From Nitrososphaeria archaeon (GTDB lineage Archaea > Thermoproteota > Nitrososphaeria > Geothermarchaeales > JDFR-13), in the NCBI GenBank assembly GCA_027078545.1, contig JALWXN010000004.1, positions 705,100-737,099 of the forward strand: 32,000 nucleotides of DNA, written 5' to 3'. The notes beneath the pieces were generated by a model that saw only the letters and a program-made list of their open reading frames with translations, had not been told where the DNA came from and made no database searches. This document shows, piece by piece, positions 7,389-16,000 of this stretch (its first letter is position 1; every line of letters begins with the position of its first letter). A program made the translations under genes and the position numbers.

Positions 7389-8127
7389 GGGGCTCGTAGC
7401 TGGCGGCCTAGGCCTATGGCTCTACAGCTTTTACGAGCCAGTCCTAAGGATAGAGTTAGTGAGGCATAGGATTGACCTTGACCTGGGGCTGGAGATCCTC
7501 TTCGTGACTGACACCCATCTCCACGGTGTCCCGGGTAGGGAGGATAGCGTCATAAAGCTTGTTGAGGATCTCTCTAGGGAGGTAGACCTCACGATACTGG
7601 GGGGAGACATGTATGACGAGTTCTCGGAGAGCCTGGAGAGCTTCTCATCCCTCCTAGATGCGATAAGTGGCGAGGCTATCATGGTTCTCGGTAACCATGA
7701 ACACTGGGCTGCCGATAGGTATCCCCTCGAAGAGACTATAGAGATGGCTGAGTCGAGAGGCGTGACTGTGCTTAGGAACGGGGTGGTGGAGTATAAAGGT
7801 CTCCATATCGGAGGGGTAGACTGGTATGGTGATAACCCGCAGCTGGCGAGGAGGTACTACAGGGACGTTGGGAGTGTAGATATCCTGGTATCCCACACAC
7901 CCGACATACTTGGTGATGCGGAGGTCGATGCACGCCTCGTATTGGCTGGCCATACGCATGGTGGCCAGATACTGGGTCCACTTGGGCTGATAACGAATAG
8001 TAGGCATGGCTATGTAAGCGGCTTCTATAGGAGGGGTGAGGCCCTGATGTATGTCTCTAGGGGGGCTGGGGAGATTATTCCCTTCCGCCTATTGACGCCC
8101 CGGGAGGTCACATTACTAAGCGTCTAG
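7348..8127 (+). CDS. Membrane-anchored calcineurin-like metallophosphoesterase
   Basis: Motifs FVTDTHLH (DxH), GGDMYDE (GD), GNHEHW (GNHE), SHTPD and AGHTHGGQ (GHxH), plus one N-terminal TM. ATG 7360 is an alternative start. It overlaps the 3' end of the peptidase gene. Confidence 0.85.
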   Translation: MHIYMRRGRRGAIKGLVAGGLGLWLYSFYEPVLRIELVRHRIDLDLGLEILFVTDTHLHGVPGREDSVIKLVEDLSREVDLTILGGDMYDEFSESLESFSSLLDAISGEAIMVLGNHEHWAADRYPLEETIEMAESRGVTVLRNGVVEYKGLHIGGVDWYGDNPQLARRYYRDVGSVDILVSHTPDILGDAEVDARLVLAGHTHGGQILGPLGLITNSRHGYVSGFYRRGEALMYVSRGAGEIIPFRLLTPREVTLLSV

Positions 8128-9119
8128 CCAGACATCCTTATCAATATCTTCCCGTCACGCTCCCTGCTGAATAGGCTGTTTAGCGCCTCACCAGCCTGGT
8201 CTAGGCTATATATCCTCCATATCCTAGGCTTTACCACACCCCTCTCTAAATCCCTAAGCACATCCTTGAACTCTTGGATGGTTCCCCCGGTCACCCCTAT
8301 TAGGCTGGTCTCTCTACGGTAGATCGGGGCTACCCCGCCTGGAATGTCCATCGAGGTTAGGCCGCCGAATGTCATTACATATCCATGTCTCTTGACGATG
8401 ATTAGCGACTCTGCCAATAATTTTCCGCCCAATGGGTTGATGATGAGGTCTGGCTCTCCCCACTCATCTATAAGCTGCTTAACATCCCCGGGAGGGACTA
8501 CCCTGGAGGCCCCGAGCCCTGAGACCCAGTCCTTCCTCGTTACGGCTGCGACGTCTATCCCTGCTTTTGCTAGGTACTGGACTATATACATCCCGACGTT
8601 GCCCGATGCCCCATATACCAGGGCCTTCTCAATACATAGCTCCAAAGCCCTATTCACCGCATGCTTGGCCGTTAGGGCTGATACACCGGCCGTGGCCTGT
8701 ATCTCAGGCTCTCCACCAGCCTCATAAACGTTCTTCTCCGGTAGCTTGACATACTCCGCGTATGTCCCATCCACTACACCACCTACGATACCGCCCCGTA
8801 GGCAGAGGTTCTCATGCCCCTCCCTACACTCCTCACACTCTCCACAGTGTATCCAGGGATAGATACTGACCTGCATCCCCTTCTTGAGGCGGTTTACACC
8901 ATCGCCCACATCGACGACTATCCCTGAGGCCTCGCTCCCCACGATCCTTTTAGGCGGGTCCAATGGGTATCTACCACTGGCTATCCAGTAGTCTATAGGA
9001 TTCACACCTGTATAGAGAATCTTCACCAGGACCTCTCCCGGGCCAGGCTCCGGCGTCCCTACCTCCCCAACCACTAGTCTGGGCGGGTCAACCTTCCCAC
9101 TATATGTTGCTGCCCTCAT
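8124..9119 (-). CDS. MDR-superfamily NAD(P)-dependent oxidoreductase (zinc-ADH/quinone-oxidoreductase-like)
   Basis: Structural-zinc lobe CGECEECREGHENLC (C-x2-C-x2-C-x7-C). Rossmann motif VYGASGNVG. The GHE signature reads GSEASG and the first ligand region is QOR-like (GVNPIDY). Confidence 0.85.
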   Translation of the reverse strand: MRAATYSGKVDPPRLVVGEVGTPEPGPGEVLVKILYTGVNPIDYWIASGRYPLDPPKRIVGSEASGIVVDVGDGVNRLKKGMQVSIYPWIHCGECEECREGHENLCLRGGIVGGVVDGTYAEYVKLPEKNVYEAGGEPEIQATAGVSALTAKHAVNRALELCIEKALVYGASGNVGMYIVQYLAKAGIDVAAVTRKDWVSGLGASRVVPPGDVKQLIDEWGEPDLIINPLGGKLLAESLIIVKRHGYVMTFGGLTSMDIPGGVAPIYRRETSLIGVTGGTIQEFKDVLRDLERGVVKPRIWRIYSLDQAGEALNSLFSRERDGKILIRMSG

Positions 9120-9188: not shown

Positions 9189-9929
9189 TTGAGGATACGC
9201 GGCGTATCTATAGACCTATGGTTCACACTCGTGTATGACGATGCTGAGAGGTATAGGCTGTTCCAGAGGTCTAGGATAGACTATATCTATGGAGTCCTGA
9301 AGATGTATCGTGACGATGTGGCGAGGGAGGACTTAGAAGGCCTATTCGAGGAGTTCAAGACCTTCATGATGGAGGTTCATCCCTATAGGCTGATGCAGAT
9401 GGTCGCCGCGGCTCTTGGAGTCGACTCCGAGGCTGTGGACGAGATGTATAGCAGGTATATAGACGCCGCCTGGAATGCGAGGCCCTATGTAAACAGAGAC
9501 GCCCTCAAATTCCTCGAGTGGTGTGAGGAGCGTGGCCTACCAGTAGTTATAACAACGAACACGACCTACTCTAGGGAGATGATAGAGCGGATGTTCAGCA
9601 ACATCGGGCTGGAGAAGTATTCCGAGAACGTGGTCTCGTCGGCGGAGGTGGGTGCTGCCAAGCCTAAGCCCGAGATCTTCAGGGCAGCGGTCGATAAGCT
9701 TGGACTTAATCCCAAGGAGGTTCTACACGTGGGGGACAAGTATGTCCATGACGCGTTAGGGGCGTATCTAGCAGGGCTTAGGCCTGCCCTCTACAGGGGG
9801 CTCTGGGACAGGTATGGACGGTTCATGGGCTTTGGTGAGGAGTTCGAGGTCAGGAGTTATCCACCGTATATCTGGGTCGTGGATAGCTTCGAGGAGCTTA
9901 TCGAGAGGCTGGAGAGGATAACAGGCTAG
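9189..9929 (+). CDS. HAD-superfamily hydrolase (subfamily IA-like)
   Basis: TTG start. Motif I SIDLWFTLV, motif II VITTNT, motif III Lys in AAKPKPEIF, motif IV HVGDKYVHDALGA. Confidence 0.8.
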   Translation: MRIRGVSIDLWFTLVYDDAERYRLFQRSRIDYIYGVLKMYRDDVAREDLEGLFEEFKTFMMEVHPYRLMQMVAAALGVDSEAVDEMYSRYIDAAWNARPYVNRDALKFLEWCEERGLPVVITTNTTYSREMIERMFSNIGLEKYSENVVSSAEVGAAKPKPEIFRAAVDKLGLNPKEVLHVGDKYVHDALGAYLAGLRPALYRGLWDRYGRFMGFGEEFEVRSYPPYIWVVDSFEELIERLERITG

Positions 9930-9982
9930 CCTAATACCCCTATTTAAATCGGCGTGGGGGCAATACAATACTTGACACTTAT

Positions 9983-11155
9983 TTGAACACCCCATTGGAT
10001 GAGGTGTCGCCGGTGGCCGATGTCGGTATAATAGGGGTTGGGACGACCCAGTTCCGTCCCGAGACCCGTGAGAAGCTGTTCAAGGAGCTTATGTACGAGG
10101 CTGCCTACCGAGCCTATCTCGAGGCGGGTGTCGATCCTAGGCGTGACATAGATGCCTTCATAACGGCCTCTGAAGACCTCTGGGAGGGCCTGGCAATATT
10201 CGATGAGTATGTCCCAGACCAGCTGGGCGGAGTATTGAAACCGGTCTTCACTGTGGGTGGGGACGGTATACATGGGCTTATCCATGGATACATGCTCATA
10301 AAGACAGGTAGGTTCGACGTCGTGGCCGTGGAGGCGCATAGTAAGGCCAGCGAGATAGAGAATATCAAGAAGGTGGTTAGGTTCGCCCTCGACCCGATAT
10401 ATCTACGCCCAGTCATCGAGGATGTCGACGTCCTAGCGGGGCTGGAGATGGCTGCCTCCCTAGGCTGCTACGGCATAGACATGGATACTGTGAACGAGGT
10501 GATACTGAAGAACCACTTCAACGGATCCTTCAACTCGGCTCCCTATGCCCAGAACCTCGACGAGAACAGCTTCGAGACCCCTGAATACCTTGCCGAGCCG
10601 CTGAGGGCACTGGACGTGGCTCAATACGTCGATGGAGGAGTGGTCATCGTCCTAGCCTCCAAGGAGTACATCTCGAGGGAGGGATTGGAGCCCGTATGGA
10701 TAGAGGGTGTAGGCTGGGCTACACAGGGTGGACGCTTCGAACGCTTCCTAGACATGCCCGGCGAGGGCTTGGCTGCAGCTGCTAGGATGGCCTACGACAT
10801 GGCTGGCGTCTCGAGGCCTAGGAGGTATTTCGACCTGGCAGAGGTGGACGACAGGTTCAGCTTTAGGGAGCCTGTATCACTGATAGCCCTCGGCCTAGCC
10901 AGTGGAGACGTCAACCTGGACTATGCGGACAGGATTTTCGATATGGATGGGGAGCTCCCAGTGAACGTCTCCGGCGGGTTCCTCGCAAATGGGTATCCAC
11001 TAGAGGCGGGAGGCCTTATGAAGCTTGTCTACGCAGCTAGGCAGATATGGGGCGAGGCCGGGCCCAACCAGCTCGACGATGTGGAGAAGGCGTTGGTGGC
11101 GACTAGGAGGGAGATACCCTCAACCACATATGGGGTAGTAGTCCTATCGGGGTGA
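9983..11155 (+). CDS. Thiolase-fold (SCP2-thiolase-like) protein lacking canonical catalytic residues
   Basis: N-terminal VGIIGVGTTQF and C-terminal DLAEVDDRFSF...PVNVSGGFLANGYPLEAGG follow the thiolase layout. The nucleophile elbow reads TVGGDG (no Cys), HDCF reads VDDRF and GHP reads GYP. The start is uncertain (TTG 9983, or GTG 10004/10013). Confidence 0.8.
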   Translation: MNTPLDEVSPVADVGIIGVGTTQFRPETREKLFKELMYEAAYRAYLEAGVDPRRDIDAFITASEDLWEGLAIFDEYVPDQLGGVLKPVFTVGGDGIHGLIHGYMLIKTGRFDVVAVEAHSKASEIENIKKVVRFALDPIYLRPVIEDVDVLAGLEMAASLGCYGIDMDTVNEVILKNHFNGSFNSAPYAQNLDENSFETPEYLAEPLRALDVAQYVDGGVVIVLASKEYISREGLEPVWIEGVGWATQGGRFERFLDMPGEGLAAAARMAYDMAGVSRPRRYFDLAEVDDRFSFREPVSLIALGLASGDVNLDYADRIFDMDGELPVNVSGGFLANGYPLEAGGLMKLVYAARQIWGEAGPNQLDDVEKALVATRREIPSTTYGVVVLSG

Positions 11156-12339
11156 TCAATATGAAGATGAATATCTATAGGAAGAACCGTGTCGCGTGTG
11201 TTGGGGCCGGGCTAACCCTCTTCAGGCGTAGGCTGATGGAGACGAGCGACGAGCTCATGTGGCTAGCCGCTAGACAGGCGCTCGACGAGGCAGGCCTAAC
11301 CATAGAGGATATAGACTGCATAATATTCGGGACAGCCCCGGACAACTTCGACGGCATCCATATGCAGAGCGAGGCCCTTGCTGATGGGGCAGGAGCCGTG
11401 AATAAGCCCTATACAAGGGTCTATGTAGGTGGTGGTACAGGGGTCTTCAGCGTTATAGCCGGGTGGTGGCACGTGGCCTCTGGACTGTGTGACAGGGTGC
11501 TCGTCATAGCGGAGGAGAAGATGAGCCATGTACAGCCCCATCCCCAGTACCTCTTCCACCACATCTTCGACCCCGTGACTGAGAAGCCCCTGGGCGTCAA
11601 CCTGATATGGATCTTCGCCCTGGAGATGCATCGATACATGTATAAATACGGCATCAAGAAGGAGGACATCGCCCTCGTCTCGGTGAAGAATAAGAGGAAC
11701 GCGTTGGACCATCCATCCGCCCAGGTGGCTGCGAAGATAACTGTGGAGGACGTCCTCAACAGCGAGGTACTGGTATGGCCCGTCCAGAGGCTCGACATCT
11801 CACCCGTCTCAGACGGTGCTGGGGCCCTCGTGCTTGTCAGTGAGTCGGAGGCTAAGAAGCTTACCGACGAGCCTATATGGATCGACGGCGTAGGGTGGAG
11901 CCTCGACACGATGTACTGGACAAATAGGGACCTGGCATTCCCCGTCTACCTATACTACGCAGGTAAGATGGCCTATGAGATGGCGGGGATCGAGAACCCG
12001 AGGAAGGAGATAGACTTCGCAGAGGTCTACGACCCCTTCGACTATAAGGAGCTCCACCACATGGAGGGTCTACAGCTTGCTAGGAAGGGTGAGGCGCCTA
12101 TACTAACTAGGGAGGGAGTCACCGAGCGGGATGGAGACCTCCCGATAAACCCGAGCGGAGGCCTACTAGGCGTGGGGAACCCGATCGCTGCAGCCGGGAT
12201 AATGAAGGTGGCCGAGGTCTACTGGCAGCTGAGAGGAATGGCGGGTAAGAGGCAGGTCAAGAAGGATGTGGTCACCGGCCTGGCCCAGGCCTGGGGAGAC
12301 CTTATGCAGGTGGGCACAGTCGTGGTTATGAGGAGGTGA
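11152..12339 (+). CDS. Thiolase-fold (SCP2-thiolase-like) protein, second paralog, also lacking canonical catalytic residues
   Basis: VACVGAGLTLF, VLVIAEEKMS and DFAEVYDPFDY...PINPSGGLLGVGNPIAAAG. The nucleophile position reads VGGGTG, HDCF reads VYDPF and GHP reads GNP. GTGA overlap with the upstream stop; ATG 11161/11167 are alternative starts. Confidence 0.8.
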   Translation: MINMKMNIYRKNRVACVGAGLTLFRRRLMETSDELMWLAARQALDEAGLTIEDIDCIIFGTAPDNFDGIHMQSEALADGAGAVNKPYTRVYVGGGTGVFSVIAGWWHVASGLCDRVLVIAEEKMSHVQPHPQYLFHHIFDPVTEKPLGVNLIWIFALEMHRYMYKYGIKKEDIALVSVKNKRNALDHPSAQVAAKITVEDVLNSEVLVWPVQRLDISPVSDGAGALVLVSESEAKKLTDEPIWIDGVGWSLDTMYWTNRDLAFPVYLYYAGKMAYEMAGIENPRKEIDFAEVYDPFDYKELHHMEGLQLARKGEAPILTREGVTERDGDLPINPSGGLLGVGNPIAAAGIMKVAEVYWQLRGMAGKRQVKKDVVTGLAQAWGDLMQVGTVVVMRR

Positions 12340-12344
12340 GCCGG

Positions 12345-12872
12345 ATGGATACTAGGCCTAAGAACCCGGAGGGAACCCCATATAGGATGGAGGATCTGAG
12401 GAGTGGGGCCATACCATATACCGAGGATAGTCTAGAGGCATGGTACCGCTGGAGCCTGGGGAAATATCTAGGCAAGTATCTAGAGGGGCTTAGGGAGGGT
12501 AAGATCTATGGTAGGAGGTGTAACAACTGTGAGAGGATCTATGTCCCGCCTAGAGAGGTGTGCCACCACTGCTTCCGCACCACCGATGAGTGGGTGGAGG
12601 TCGGTGATACTGGGAGGGTTAACACAGCCGTGGTTAGCTATATATCCGCTGATAGGGGTAGGGTGGAGGAGCCCATAATAATTGCGGTTATAGAGCTGGA
12701 GGGAGCCTCGCCAGGGATCGGCATCCTACATAGGCTTGGAAACGTGTCCCCCGAGGACGTGAAGAGTATGAAGATATTCGGTAAGAGGGTAAGAGCAGTT
12801 TGGAAGCCTCCTGAGGAGAGGACTGGCTCGGTAAACGATATCCTATACTTCGAGCCTATCGAGGAGGTGTAG
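12345..12872 (+). CDS. DUF35-family protein (rubredoxin-like zinc ribbon + OB fold), thiolase-associated
   Basis: Zinc ribbon CNNCERIYVPPREVCHHC followed by an OB-like segment (GRVNTAVVSYI). ATG 12345 is preceded by GGAGGTGA at a 7-nt spacing. The ORF track opens at GTG 12336, overlapping the upstream stop. Confidence 0.8.
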   Translation: MDTRPKNPEGTPYRMEDLRSGAIPYTEDSLEAWYRWSLGKYLGKYLEGLREGKIYGRRCNNCERIYVPPREVCHHCFRTTDEWVEVGDTGRVNTAVVSYISADRGRVEEPIIIAVIELEGASPGIGILHRLGNVSPEDVKSMKIFGKRVRAVWKPPEERTGSVNDILYFEPIEEV

Positions 12873-12876
12873 GGGT

Positions 12877-13293
12877 ATGGAGTATAGGTTTAAGGTGGAT
12901 GTCCCCGGCTATATCTACCCCACGGGGAGGGCTGGAAAGATATTCGCCGAGAACATTAAGAAGGGCGTAGTAGTAGCGTCTCGCTGTGACGAGTGTAGGG
13001 TGTACTTCCTACCCCCAACAGCCTACTGCCCACACTGCTTCAACGAGCTCAGGAACTATACCCCGGTGGAGACATTCATACTGGTCGCCAAGACGGTCCT
13101 GGAAAAGGGTGTTGAGAAGGTCGCCTATGGATATGTCAAGGGGATTATAGGTGGTGAGGAGACCCAGGGAGGCTTCATACACAGGGTCGACCCCGACGCC
13201 GAGCCGGGAGAGGTTTTGAAACCCGTTCTGAAGCCCGAGGAGGAGCGCCGGGGGATCATTACAGATATAGAGTTCTTCGCCAAGGCGGACTAG
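12877..13293 (+). CDS. DUF35-family protein (zinc ribbon + OB fold), second copy
   Basis: Zinc ribbon CDECRVYFLPPTAYCPHC. A GGAGGTG Shine-Dalgarno sequence lies upstream of ATG 12877. This is the last gene of the four-gene operon. Confidence 0.8.
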   Translation: MEYRFKVDVPGYIYPTGRAGKIFAENIKKGVVVASRCDECRVYFLPPTAYCPHCFNELRNYTPVETFILVAKTVLEKGVEKVAYGYVKGIIGGEETQGGFIHRVDPDAEPGEVLKPVLKPEEERRGIITDIEFFAKAD

Positions 13294-13307
13294 CCCCCCT
13301 CCCCCAA

Positions 13308-13312
13308 TTTTT
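13308..13312 (+). terminator. Oligo-T archaeal terminator candidate after the thiolase-like/DUF35 operon
   Basis: T5 run 15 nt after the TAG at 13291-13293, preceded by a C-rich tract. Confidence 0.35.
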
Positions 13313-13415
13313 ACACCAGTCGTAAATACTCTTATCCTAAGTAATTAGGGGGATTGATTAAATCTGCCCTGATTGATATGAGATTGTGGATAACTAAGAC
13401 CGGAGGTGAAGCGAT

Positions 13416-14012
13416 ATGGATCAGAAGGTTATTGCCGGTGTAGCGATCGTCATACTCATAGCTGCCATCGCGGGATACTTCATGATGAGTAGCCCCGCCG
13501 GTGAAACAGGCGGGGGTGAGGCTGGTGAGGAGACATACATAGTTATCGGCTACTACTGGGGCTTCAAGATATACGACTCCAACTACAACCCTGTGGACAA
13601 GATCATGGTTAAGAAGGGAACGACCCTAAAGATAATATTCCTCAACGCCAGATCCTTCGCCGAGGACTTCTATGGCCCACTGGAGGAGGAGAGTAAGCAG
13701 AAAGGCGTAGGTGGCCTCGACAACGGGCCATTGGAGCAGAAGATCATGGAGGCTTTGGAGACTAACTTGGTTGACCATGGCCTACAGATAATTGGATATG
13801 GCGTGAGTGTAGCTACGAACTATAAGGCTTTCAGCGGAACTGCCAAGACACTCCAGGAGTTCTTCCAGAACGAGCCTCAGGACGCTATTAACCAGCACAC
13901 AGTAGTCTTCAAGGCCGATAAGACGGGTGTATTCGACTTCGTCTGCTACGTCGTCTGTGGCTATGGCCACTCCTTCATGAGCCTAAAGGGCGCTCTCCAG
14001 GTGTACGAGTAG
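13416..14012 (+). CDS. Membrane-anchored CuA-type cupredoxin (cytochrome oxidase subunit II-like), orphan
   Basis: One N-terminal TM. There is an upstream His in LVDHGLQI and a complete CuA motif, C-x3-C-x3-H-x2-M, in FVCYVVCGYGHSFM (compare the mitochondrial CG..HSFM). GGAGGTGA lies 8 nt before the ATG. Confidence 0.75.
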   Translation: MDQKVIAGVAIVILIAAIAGYFMMSSPAGETGGGEAGEETYIVIGYYWGFKIYDSNYNPVDKIMVKKGTTLKIIFLNARSFAEDFYGPLEEESKQKGVGGLDNGPLEQKIMEALETNLVDHGLQIIGYGVSVATNYKAFSGTAKTLQEFFQNEPQDAINQHTVVFKADKTGVFDFVCYVVCGYGHSFMSLKGALQVYE

Positions 14013-14620: not shown

Positions 14621-16000
14621 ATGGGAAGCCTGATTGAAATATCTCCTAGCCAGAACACCACCTACATGGATAGCCTCAAGAGGGGGATAGAGTCCTTCCT
14701 CCTCGAGAAGCTGGGTGGTAGGCCTCCAAGCGCCAGCTACACAGTCGTATGGAGGGATGGAGAGACTCTACGAGGGGCTGTTGGCTATAGGGATGTGGAG
14801 GAGGGGCTCCCGGCGACGCCTGAGACGCTATACGGGGTGGGTAGTATAACGAAGACCTTCACCGCCTTAACAGTACTCATGCTCCAGAGGGAGGGCCTAC
14901 TATCGCTCGACGACCCCATATCACGATACGTACCCATCGATATGGAGATCGGGGGTGAGGAGGTTAGGATATGGCACCTCCTAAGCCACACCTCTGGGGT
15001 AGCCGCACTGGCCTATGCGGAGAGCCTGCTGAGGGGCTATGTAGGTGAGTCGCCCAGCTACCTACCCATCTCGGGGCCGGAGGACATACTCTCCTTTATG
15101 GAGGGGTGGAGGGACTGGGCCATCGCATGGCCTGGTGAGAAGTACTTCTACCTTAACGAGGGGTTCGTCCTCGTGGGTATGGCCATCGAGAAGGCGACTG
15201 GGATGAAGTATGAGGATGCCCTCAGGAAGTATGTCCTGGAAAGGCTGGGCATGAGTAGCACAACTGTTGGTAGGCCTATAGACATGGGTATGATGGCGAC
15301 GCCCTACGTGGTCGGTAAAGAGGGTTTGAGGAGGGCTAGGGTCCCACCCCTAGGGGCAGATGGAGGGATGATAACAAATGCAGTTGACATGTCACGCTTC
15401 CTAATGGCTATGCTCAACAGGGGTGGCGACGCCCTTCCCAGAGAGGTTGTCGATGAGCTTGAGAAGCCAAGGATAAGGACCTCCCTACTCAATAGGGAGG
15501 AGTATTACTGCCTAGGCCTATCAAAGACCGTCGTGGGTGGGCTGGAGCTGTATGGGCATAGCGGCTCAGTCCTGGTCTACACGGCCTACATGGCCTACAA
15601 CAGGGAGGAGGGCGTCGGCGTCGCCGTCATGTCGAACGGGACTGGCTACCCAATGTCTAGCGCCGGGCTATACATACTGGCCAGGGCCCTAGGCAGGAAC
15701 CCGCTAGAGTTCGAGCCACTCCTCATCGACGAGGCTCTGAACAGCCTGGTAGGCACCTATGAGAGCTTCAAGGGCGGCTTCAGAGCCAGGGTTGAGAGGA
15801 TGGGTGGTATACTCATAATCAAGTATAGTGGGAGGAGCTACGAGGTCTCAATACCCCTGATTCCAAGGGATCTCTCAGGGGACGAGAAGATCTTCGAGGC
15901 TATAAATGGTGACCGGCGCTACGAGGCGGTCTTCTACAAGCGGGACGGTGAGCTGTATCTACAGGTTGAGAGGTATCTATTCCGGAGAGTCCCTGCTTGA
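14621..16000 (+). CDS. Beta-lactamase-fold serine hydrolase / S12 peptidase with beta-rich C-terminal domain (Pab87/CubicO-like)
   Basis: SxxK (SITKTF), YxN (YLNEG) and H-x-G (GHSGS) motifs. The ~100-aa beta-rich C-terminal extension and the size are consistent with archaeal S12 self-compartmentalising peptidases. That subfamily assignment is from memory and unverified. Confidence 0.8.
   Translation: MGSLIEISPSQNTTYMDSLKRGIESFLLEKLGGRPPSASYTVVWRDGETLRGAVGYRDVEEGLPATPETLYGVGSITKTFTALTVLMLQREGLLSLDDPISRYVPIDMEIGGEEVRIWHLLSHTSGVAALAYAESLLRGYVGESPSYLPISGPEDILSFMEGWRDWAIAWPGEKYFYLNEGFVLVGMAIEKATGMKYEDALRKYVLERLGMSSTTVGRPIDMGMMATPYVVGKEGLRRARVPPLGADGGMITNAVDMSRFLMAMLNRGGDALPREVVDELEKPRIRTSLLNREEYYCLGLSKTVVGGLELYGHSGSVLVYTAYMAYNREEGVGVAVMSNGTGYPMSSAGLYILARALGRNPLEFEPLLIDEALNSLVGTYESFKGGFRARVERMGGILIIKYSGRSYEVSIPLIPRDLSGDEKIFEAINGDRRYEAVFYKRDGELYLQVERYLFRRVPA

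Follow-up and report, generated by a model that had tools for sequence, protein, structure and literature searches.

Two thiolase-fold paralogs with substituted catalytic residues and two DUF35 proteins encoded by a conserved archaeal gene module

The four-gene module and its products

In the present study we analysed a module of four genes carried by a 32,000-nt stretch of DNA from a Nitrososphaeria archaeon (assembly GCA_027078545.1, contig JALWXN010000004.1, positions 705,100 to 737,099 of the forward strand), the whole of which is referred to below as the window. The module encodes two thiolase-fold paralogs (T1 and T2) followed by two DUF35 proteins (D1 and D2). A check of the open reading frames (ORFs) revealed four co-directional genes, with 9983 and 10013 as the two possible starts of T1. 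The module comprises the following features:

9941..9949, + strand: TATA-like box TATTTAAAT, read from the sequence, approximately 60 nt 5' of the probable T1 start
10013..11155, + strand: T1, thiolase-fold paralog of 380 aa (counted from the GTG codon at 10013), Pfam Thiolase_C_1
11152..12339, + strand: T2, thiolase-fold paralog of 395 aa, Pfam Thiolase_N and Thiolase_C_1
12336..12872, + strand: D1, DUF35 protein of 178 aa, Pfam zf-ChsH2 and OB_ChsH2_C, with an N-terminal helical extension and an OB fold
12877..13293, + strand: D2, second and more divergent DUF35 protein of 138 aa, Pfam zf-ChsH2 only
13306..13313, + strand: oligo-T run AATTTTTA, read from the sequence, 13 nt past the D2 stop codon

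GTGA overlaps were found at 11152 (T1/T2) and 12336 (T2/D1), while D1 and D2 are separated by 4 nt, with a GAGGAGGTG Shine-Dalgarno (SD) site before D2. The coupling of all four genes by GTGA overlaps or closely spaced SD sites, reported in a preliminary description of this DNA, was thus confirmed from the sequence. The TATA-like box TATTTAAAT, situated just 3' of the stop codon of an upstream HAD gene (9927-9929), is a putative promoter of the operon, and the run AATTTTTA is a possible archaeal terminator at its end. Taken together, the overlaps, the 4-nt gap with its SD site, the putative promoter and the oligo-T run make T1-T2-D1-D2 look like one transcription unit. Scans for bacterial-type hairpin terminators at the end of D2 and for sigma-70 promoters gave no match and no signal above background, respectively, neither type of scan being applicable to an archaeon.

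The start of T1 was initially placed at TTG 9983, which is probably incorrect. GTG 10013 is preceded by an SD site (GAGGTG, 10001-10006), and a 97%-identical homolog (P0001) begins with MADVGIIG; both observations favour GTG 10013 as the most likely start.

T1 and T2 share 33% identity. The SCP2-thiolase layout ascribed to both proteins of approximately 390 aa in the preliminary description is upheld by three lines of analysis, namely (i) the Pfam thiolase domains, (ii) the AlphaFold models (AF2; pLDDT of 91.5 for T1 and 88 for T2, pTM 0.91-0.92), and (iii) a Foldseek search, which placed T1 and T2 among SCP2-type, DUF35-partnered thiolases (TM 0.8-0.9 to 7yvy, 6esq, 4yzo and 6hrv). The top Foldseek matches of T2 were ST0096 (4YZO), PFC_04095 (7YVY) and the Methanothermococcus thiolase 6esq (TM 0.90). 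This search confirms the thiolase fold, but has no power to separate a thiolase from an aldolase.

At the family level, T2 passes the NCBIfam equivalog model PRK06065 (NF004721, "thiolase domain-containing protein"; 715.6 bits, cut-off 455), while the nearest model of T1, the equivalog PRK06066 (NF004722), is matched below threshold (393.5 bits, cut-off 516). Both of these equivalogs lack a functional name. Neither T1 nor T2 matched an HMG-CoA synthase (HMGCS) model of Pfam or NCBIfam.

Translation confirmed that each of the two DUF35 genes encodes a C-x2-C-x10-C-x2-C ribbon, as first described. The ribbon of D1 extends from C62 to C79 (12519-12572; CNNC...CHHC) and that of D2 from C37 to C54 (12985-13038; CDEC...CPHC); these four residues are the only cysteines of either protein. 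D1 and D2 are only 24% identical to each other, and the best PDB match of both is SSO2064 (3irb), at E = 2e-14 for D1, N-terminal helices included, and E = 1e-9 for D2. D1 contains both the PF12172 ribbon and the PF01796 OB domain of the DUF35 family. D2 contains the ribbon; OB_ChsH2_C has no match in the D2 of the window, but is matched in D2 orthologs of other loci.

Substitution of the catalytic residues and its conservation

The catalytic motifs were read by translation and by alignment to canonical thiolases. In T1, the position of the nucleophilic Cys (A-C-A-S-G in canonical thiolases) is occupied by Gly82 within TVGGDG (10250-10267), the equivalent of HDCF is DDRF (10847-10858), and that of GHP is GYP (10991-10999). 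The corresponding positions of T2 are Gly94 within YVGGGTG (11422-11442), YDPF within YDPFDYK (12028-12048), with Tyr293 as the first residue of the motif, and GNP (12175-12183), with Asn343 at the His position; the AWGD motif (12289-12300) retains the oxyanion-hole Gly382. The replacements listed in the preliminary description (GGDG and GGGTG at the nucleophile elbow, DDRF and YDPF for HDCF, GYP and GNP for GHP) were all verified in this way. Neither T1 nor T2 of the window therefore carries the elbow Cys, the HDCF motif or the GHP His of thiolases.

Conservation of the substituted sites was analysed in an alignment of 119 homologs of the T1 family and 119 of the T2 family, with two canonical thiolases (Cys, HDCF/HDAF, GHP) as references: Pyrococcus PFC_04095 (7YVY) and one Bathyarchaeial thiolase. 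All 119 members of the T2 family have Gly94 in V-G-G-[A/G]-T-G, Y-D-P-F-D-Y at the HDCF position and G-N-P-I-A-A-A-G at the GHP position. In the T1 family, the Cys position is occupied by P, S, T or G, followed by Asp or Glu in every homolog (G-[D/E]-G, 119/119), and the HDCF position by D-D-x-[F/Y] (DD in 117 of 119), while the GHP position is variable (His in 61, Tyr in 31 and Asn in 22 of the 119). The loss of all canonical catalytic residues, first claimed for both paralogs, thus holds for the T1 of the window and for the entire T2 family, but not for the T1 family, about half of which keeps the GHP His.

Conservation of T2 extends well beyond these motifs, with 173 of its 395 positions at least 99% invariant. 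New invariant polar residues lie in or beside the old catalytic motifs (H107, E121, K181, H187, D297-Y298-K299, H303 and D383). The invariant histidines acquired are H70, H107, H130, H187, H302 and H303, and the invariant basic residues gained are R25, K181 and K299; the backbone oxyanion-hole glycines, Gly94 and Gly382, are retained. The same signature is present in the Chloroflexi and Thermoplasmata copies. T2 is also by far the slowest-evolving member of the module within the same genome pairs: identities between the window and Chloroflexi are 65% (T2), 45% (T1), 46% (D1) and 30% (D2), and those between the window and Pyrobaculum are 74%, 43%, 47% and 32%, respectively. Invariant replacements accompanied by new invariant polar residues point to a site that was rebuilt under purifying selection and did not decay. 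This pattern indicates that the replacements in T2 are selectively maintained and that the module is not a decaying enzyme, and T2 is a highly constrained and probably functional subunit.

These alignments also bear on whether T1 and T2 could be genuine thiolases or Claisen-condensing enzymes with displaced catalytic residues. Such an assignment would agree with the name acetyl-CoA C-acetyltransferase given to homologs in the NCBI and JGI sources, and the six new invariant histidines of T2 could be regarded as displaced catalytic residues, but the source names are automatic annotations, and a displaced conserved Cys, named earlier as the observation that would overturn the description of these proteins, was sought across both families without success: the most conserved Cys column reaches no more than 62% in T2 and 80% in T1, and none lies at the active site. 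This excludes a displaced nucleophile, and there is no conserved Cys in D1 or D2 outside the zinc ribbons. Enzymes of this superfamily depend on a covalent acyl-Cys intermediate for both thiolysis and Claisen condensation. We therefore consider displaced catalysis extremely improbable. With no nucleophile and no acid/base Cys, no acyl-enzyme, thiolysis or Claisen condensation is to be expected, and acyl-Cys thiolysis is excluded for the complex as far as sequence can show; the early view that Claisen thiolysis is unlikely is thereby supported.

T1 and T2 share 16 derived positions relative to canonical thiolases, e.g. in a Y-K-E-L-x-H stretch past the HDCF-equivalent motif, which suggests that they are probably sister paralogs.

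Both paralogs contain a conserved acidic loop, comprising residues 51-70 of T1 (window 10160-10220; E54, D55, E58, D64, E65, D69) and residues 64-75 of T2 (window 11340-11376; D64, D67, H70, E74). These loops are the sole low-confidence stretch of the AlphaFold monomer models and may become ordered only within the complex. A basic cleft has been described for DUF35 proteins in the literature, and the loops may, by analogy, dock into it.

Distribution, gene order and evidence for a probable single complex

Peptide patterns specific for T2 identified at least 366 species genomes, from TACK, Asgard and Thermoplasmata archaea, some lineages related to methanogens, and Chloroflexi; the locus counts given below refer to the best 80 loci. 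The T2 of the window is 99% identical to a copy in a metagenome-assembled genome of Candidatus Geothermarchaeota, which places the window in that lineage and outside Thermoprotei in the strict sense. The 80 loci span Geothermarchaeota, other Nitrososphaeria, Pyrobaculum, Thermoproteus, Vulcanisaeta, Thermocladium, Bathyarchaeia, Baldrarchaeia, Hod- and Promethearchaeota, Sulfolobales, Desulfurococcales and Methanofastidiosia, and the same four genes occur in the same order in Chloroflexi and Thermoplasmata. In nearly all of the 80 loci that were long enough to show it, the order is T1-T2-D1-D2, with overlapping or abutting genes; the neighbourhood comparison suggested in the preliminary description has thus revealed a gene order that recurs across many phyla. 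Judged from these sequences, the substitutions and the recurring gene order are far beyond chance. A tblastn search of plasmids with T2 found generic thiolases only (<40% identity).

Departures from this order were observed in a few loci, some of them from Vulcanisaeta. T1-T2 lack adjacent DUF35 genes in L026 (Vulcanisaeta) and in a thaumarchaeotal locus (L077), the DUF35 pair lies upstream on the opposite strand in a nitrososphaerial locus (L040), and T1 lies downstream on the opposite strand in L027.

The acetyl-CoA C-acetyltransferase label of the homologs was compared with the residues of the proteins nearest to T2. Among 109 full-length representatives of 50%-identity clusters (P0240-P0389), only 18 carry the Cys/His/His triad. 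The commonest signature is Gly/Tyr/Asn (21 representatives), and many other Cys-less combinations were detected. As these numbers show, the thiolase annotation conceals a large radiation of Cys-less proteins, and the homologs labelled acetyl-CoA acetyltransferase are, to judge by their residues, almost certainly not that enzyme. Automatic thiolase annotation is consequently unreliable throughout much of the branch of T2. Counts of thiolase/DUF35 pairs have served to infer the capacity for fatty-acid synthesis in archaea, including Asgard lineages; given that so few of the representatives near T2 are canonical, such counts may include many non-thiolases.

Indirect evidence that the products act together, besides the conserved gene order and the translational coupling, came from a HMMER search run exhaustively over 1.84 billion cluster representatives. 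Two natural fusions, P0241 (731 aa) and P0257, consist of a T2 with the full signature followed by two successive DUF35 modules (T2-D1-D2); their Pfam content is a thiolase, zf-ChsH2 and two OB_ChsH2_C stretches. The gene of P0241 is located on a bacterial contig beside a gene for a class A penicillin-binding protein, and is preceded, at a distance of 3 nt, by a separate gene for a T1-like protein. The fused sequences show that some organisms have T2 joined physically to the two DUF35 proteins. Another candidate, P0012 (679 aa), resembled a T1-T2 fusion, but was rejected as a chimera or deletion: in this single record, the T1 part ends with ...LPVN and is followed by T2 from GTAP... onward, leaving out the C-terminus of T1 and the N-terminus of T2.

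The literature bears out the initial statement that DUF35 proteins scaffold thiolase-fold enzymes, and all solved DUF35 assemblies consist of a thiolase-fold dimer with DUF35 units on its flanks. From this common architecture we infer a T1-T2 heterodimer, which would form the core in place of the usual thiolase homodimer, with D1 and D2 each clamping one of the two non-equivalent subunits. The need of each subunit for its own DUF35 protein would account for the presence of two DUF35 genes, i.e. for the 2+2 composition. By analogy, the four genes probably encode one hetero-oligomeric complex, in which the stoichiometry would be that suggested by the solved assemblies.

Genomic neighbourhood, candidate function and related systems

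The neighbours of the module were clustered across the 80 loci, and the cluster representatives were identified by Pfam. The recurrent neighbours are:

26 loci, mostly Bathyarchaeia: canonical Cys-thiolase with its own DUF35 protein, divergently oriented
18 loci, Bathyarchaeia: HAD hydrolase upstream, only approximately 28% identical, with other genes between the HAD gene and the module
15-17 loci, Bathyarchaeia only: large and small subunits of a methylmalonyl-CoA-type B12 mutase and a MeaB-adenosyltransferase fusion, downstream on the same strand
15 of 80 loci, at least six lineages: acyl-CoA dehydrogenase (ACAD) within 8 kb
8-10 loci, several lineages: AMP-forming acyl-CoA synthetase
5 loci, Thermoproteaceae: family III CoA-transferase

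The ACAD gene was detected in Pyrobaculum, Thermoproteus, Geothermarchaeota, Nitrososphaeria, Hodarchaeota and Bathyarchaeia, and also in Thermoplasmata. The order in Thermoproteaceae is CoA-transferase, synthetase, T1, T2, D1, D2, ACAD, with the ACAD directly past D2. The context of the module is consistently one of acyl-CoA metabolism, as read from the neighbouring sequences, with no universal partner.

In the window itself, the module is adjoined upstream by the HAD hydrolase gene (9189-9929) and a divergent MDR dehydrogenase gene (8124-9119), which provide weak functional evidence since they recur only in close Geothermarchaeota relatives. Just 3' of the operon lies an ORF of 198 aa (13416-14012, + strand) that combines a hydrophobic segment at the N-terminus with the C-terminal motif C-x3-C-x3-H-x2-M, FVCYVVCGYGHSFM. 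Pfam gave no match for its product. In the PDB only weak matches were obtained (E 0.16-0.9), each of them to the CuA loop in subunit II of cytochrome c oxidase; the protein is possibly a CuA-type cupredoxin of divergent sequence. Further downstream (14621-16000, + strand), a 459-aa protein combines a beta-lactamase fold with a Pab87 octamerisation domain; this archaeal homolog of Pab87-type self-compartmentalising peptidases has no relation to the operon.

Based on the above sequence features, we tentatively propose that the DUF35-clamped T1/T2 complex performs enolate chemistry on acyl-CoA, with retro-aldol or aldol C-C cleavage as the leading candidate reaction. T2 would be the functional subunit, binding the acyl-CoA and polarising its thioester. 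The oxyanion hole would be built from the backbone NH groups of Gly94 and Gly382 together with hydrogen-bond donors, Tyr293 and Asn343, at the two His positions of thiolases, and the enolate would be formed without a covalent intermediate. In the leading reaction, a beta-hydroxyacyl-CoA would undergo retro-aldol (or aldol) cleavage with Tyr293 serving as the base towards the beta-hydroxyl, the role of the motif Tyr in Ltp2 and Sal, in a beta-oxidation-like route linked to an acyl-CoA dehydrogenase. T1 would be a diverged partner, either structural or providing a second binding pocket. The missing acid could come from T1, or from a His, Asp or Glu among the newly invariant residues of T2.

The comparison with the two aldolases is based on motif equivalence, on a constant offset of 50 residues and on the coordinates of an alignment with 9MYR. 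According to the paper describing Sal, the counterpart of the thiolase HDCF is YDHF for Ltp2, YDCY for Sal and YDCF for TbSLP, with the Tyr acting as catalytic base. The same paper gives Gly as the residue at the nucleophile position of Sal and equates Tyr344, the general acid of Ltp2, with Gln352 of Sal. The literature also confirms that Ltp2 is a Cys-less thiolase-fold aldolase using two tyrosines, as stated in the preliminary description. Tyr293 of T2 aligns with the His of HDCF, i.e. with the base Tyr294 of Ltp2 and Tyr302 of Sal. The offset of 50 residues leads from Tyr293 to Asn343 in T2, from the motif Tyr to Tyr344 or Gln352 in Ltp2 and Sal, and from the HDCF His to the GHP His in thiolases. 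In the 9MYR alignment (query 2-96 against chain residues 309-401), Tyr293 falls on chain residue 326, which equals Tyr302 if a 24-residue tag is present. The Tyr of the T1 GYP motif, suggested earlier as a clue to function, does lie at the Ltp2 Tyr344 position but is not conserved (H, Y or N in the T1 family); by alignment, the informative tyrosine is Tyr293 of the invariant YDPF of T2, rather than that of T1.

Four points favour the retro-aldol reaction: T2 matches Ltp2 and Sal in its Gly and Tyr, DUF35 proteins are its presumed partners, ACAD genes recur near the module, and ltp3/ltp4 provide a precedent for an aldol-lyase made of two paralogs. Several observations weigh against it:

(i) The general acid of either aldolase has no counterpart in T2, which has Pro295 in place of Cys304 of Sal or His296 of Ltp2, and Asn343 in place of Tyr344 of Ltp2. 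(ii) An enoyl-CoA hydratase is not conserved beside the module (1 of 80 loci). The operon contains no hydratase, and D1 and D2 are separate proteins, unlike ChsH2 and Shy, in which the DUF35 part is fused to a MaoC hydratase. (iii) No aldehyde dehydrogenase was found near the module in any of the 80 loci. (iv) The neighbours vary by lineage, the B12 mutase being confined to Bathyarchaeia and the ACAD found mainly in Thermoproteaceae. (v) Archaeal thiolases are nearer relatives of T2 than the aldolases are, with 6ok1 and 9myr ranking far below 7yvy, 4yzo and 6esq, both in sequence (E = 6e-48 for 7yvy versus 4e-24 for 6ok1 and 1e-22 for 9myr) and in structure (TM 0.90 versus 0.83 for Ltp2, 6OK1, and Sal, 9MYR).

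The missing general acid and the missing hydratase count against the retro-aldol reaction, while the proximity of T2 to archaeal DUF35-partnered thiolases implies that any aldolase function would be convergent. The hydratase and aldehyde dehydrogenase genes occur together only in a separately retrieved locus of Pyrobaculum aerophilum (L001); the idea that this pair completes a lyase pathway was rejected, as it does not recur elsewhere.

The mutase genes of Bathyarchaeia would fit a different type of enolate chemistry. The complex could be a cofactor-independent decarboxylase, or another non-cleaving enolate former such as a 2-methylacyl-CoA epimerase, acting on (methyl)malonyl-CoA or carboxy-acyl-CoA, with Tyr293 and Asn343 forming an enolate-stabilising oxyanion hole like the His and Asn of KAS III-type enzymes. 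Asn is also found in place of the GHP His in KAS III and chalcone synthases, and the invariant R25, K181 and K299 gained by T2 could bind a carboxylate. Furthermore, genes for methylmalonyl-CoA mutase subunits and the MeaB-adenosyltransferase fusion lie 3' of the module on the same strand in the 15-17 bathyarchaeial loci, an arrangement resembling sbm-ygfD-ygfG of E. coli, where the decarboxylase follows the mutase. From the literature, the Cys-less, SCP2-thiolase-like TbSLP has weak malonyl-CoA decarboxylase activity; however, its kcat is only 0.005 per s, the successors of its authors suspect an aldolase, and CtSal does not decarboxylate malonyl-CoA. Since, in addition, all 17 mutase-containing loci belong to one lineage (Bathyarchaeia) and the adjacency of ACAD in other phyla is left unexplained, we consider a decarboxylase or epimerase rather unlikely.

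Examples of the mutase genes 3' of D2 are found in L055 (10326-12008), L060 (7767-9269) and L066 (12037-12444). The three genes in question encode the mutase large subunit, a fusion of the MeaB GTPase with a corrinoid adenosyltransferase, and the B12-binding small subunit.

The absence of any canonical catalytic residue from both paralogs, together with the canonical Cys-thiolase and its own DUF35 protein encoded divergently beside the module in 26 loci, could also be understood if the assembly were non-catalytic, i.e. a binder or carrier of acyl-CoA or lipid, or a scaffold or regulator of the true thiolase/DUF35 pair or of other acyl-CoA enzymes, in a role like that of PhlA. Inert thiolase-fold partners are known from the literature (PhlA, MucA and the HMGS-like unit of a Pseudomonas fluorescens complex), DUF35 proteins can have non-enzymatic roles (e.g. 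Trf), and an SCP2 lipid-carrier gene lies past the module in one Hodarchaeota locus. We nevertheless regard a pseudoenzyme as a doubtful explanation. The old active-site positions do not vary in T2, and additional polar residues (H107, E121, K181, H187, D297, H303, D383) cluster in the catalytic motifs, a pattern seen more often in a catalytic site that was rebuilt than in a pocket under relaxed constraint; moreover, most enzymes are less conserved than T2 (65% identity between the archaeal and Chloroflexi proteins), and the canonical thiolase neighbour is largely a feature of Bathyarchaeia.

In the Hodarchaeota locus (L022, 10271-11864), genes for the SCP2 sterol-carrier-family protein and an iron-type alcohol dehydrogenase lie directly past the module, with an ACAD gene upstream; this combination was observed in one case.

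If the proposed C-C lyase function of the complex is correct, the module would represent a third independently evolved rebuilt active site on the thiolase fold and a specific candidate for those C-C cleavage steps of archaeal acyl-CoA metabolism that have no assigned enzyme. A more far-reaching version, which we offer as a long shot, is that T2-type proteins (Gly/Tyr/Asn for Cys/His/His) form an ancient archaeal-bacterial class of obligate heteromeric, DUF35-clamped lyases, with an apparatus unlike that of thiolases or steroid aldolases, and that their substrates are beta-hydroxyacyl-CoAs which cannot be oxidised to a ketone. Examples would be tertiary 3-hydroxy-3-methylacyl-CoAs derived from isoprenoid or branched-chain acids, and such a class would supply the missing C-C cleavage step for the turnover of isoprenoid lipids in archaea.

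The module would belong to the DUF35-clamped type of thiolase-fold complexes, a group in which the thiolase mechanism has been lost in some members, and it is uncharacterised within the literature searched. No paper on it was found there, in agreement with the preliminary description, which knew of no characterised archaeal example. The module is widespread and its T2 unusually conserved, yet no member has been studied in that literature.

Related systems include the steroid side-chain aldolases Ltp2-ChsH2 (6OK1) and Sal-Shy (9MYR), with which T2 shares (i) the SCP2-type thiolase fold and a Gly at the nucleophile position, (ii) a Tyr as the first residue of the HDCF-equivalent motif (YDPF versus YDHF and YDCY; T1 has Asp there), (iii) a DUF35 zinc-ribbon/OB partner, and (iv) a residue other than His at the GHP position (Asn versus Tyr in Ltp2 and Gln in Sal). 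The module differs from these aldolases in that T2 has no equivalent of the general acid, two different thiolase-fold subunits replace a homodimer, the context contains no steroid genes and the hosts are mostly archaeal.

The two adjacent, non-identical thiolase-like paralogs of actinobacteria, Ltp3 and Ltp4, resemble T1 and T2 in architecture, and genetics assigns to ltp3/ltp4 the aldolytic, not thiolytic, C-C cleavage of acyl-CoAs with C24-branched sterol side chains. T1 and T2 score only 65-180 bits on the NCBIfam "lipid-transfer protein" models, compared with 715 bits for T2 on PRK06065; by these weak scores Ltp3 and Ltp4 are probably not their orthologs, and the context of ltp3/ltp4 is steroid catabolism. 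Rv3521, encoded beside ltp3/ltp4, may carry two DUF35 domains. We know of no published structure or biochemistry of Ltp3 or Ltp4. The Friedel-Crafts acyltransferases PhlABC and MucABC likewise combine two thiolase-superfamily subunits with DUF35, one subunit (PhlA, MucA) being devoid of catalytic residues. In contrast to the module, however, PhlC and MucB keep the catalytic Cys and GHx, the inert subunit is HMGCS-like, only one type of DUF35 protein is present, and the context is bacterial secondary metabolism.

Orphan thiolase-fold proteins without a nucleophilic Cys, as in T1 and T2, are also known: TbSLP of Trypanosoma brucei (PDB 5AB4-7) and ST0096 of Sulfolobus tokodaii (4YZO). Unlike T2, TbSLP (YDCF) keeps the Cys of its motif and has no DUF35 partner. 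ST0096, a structural-genomics "thiolase-like protein" and the top sequence/structure match of both T1 and T2, has Ser at the Cys position (N-T-S-G-S-G-G) and, unlike T2, keeps both histidines.

Finally, the archaeal thiolase/HMGCS/DUF35 complex differs from the module in that both of its enzymes keep the catalytic Cys, its second subunit is an HMGCS and it contains one type of DUF35 protein. It is likewise archaeal and operon-encoded, with two different thiolase-superfamily subunits joined by DUF35, and its thiolase is the closest structural relative of both T1 (TM 0.89) and T2 (TM 0.90).

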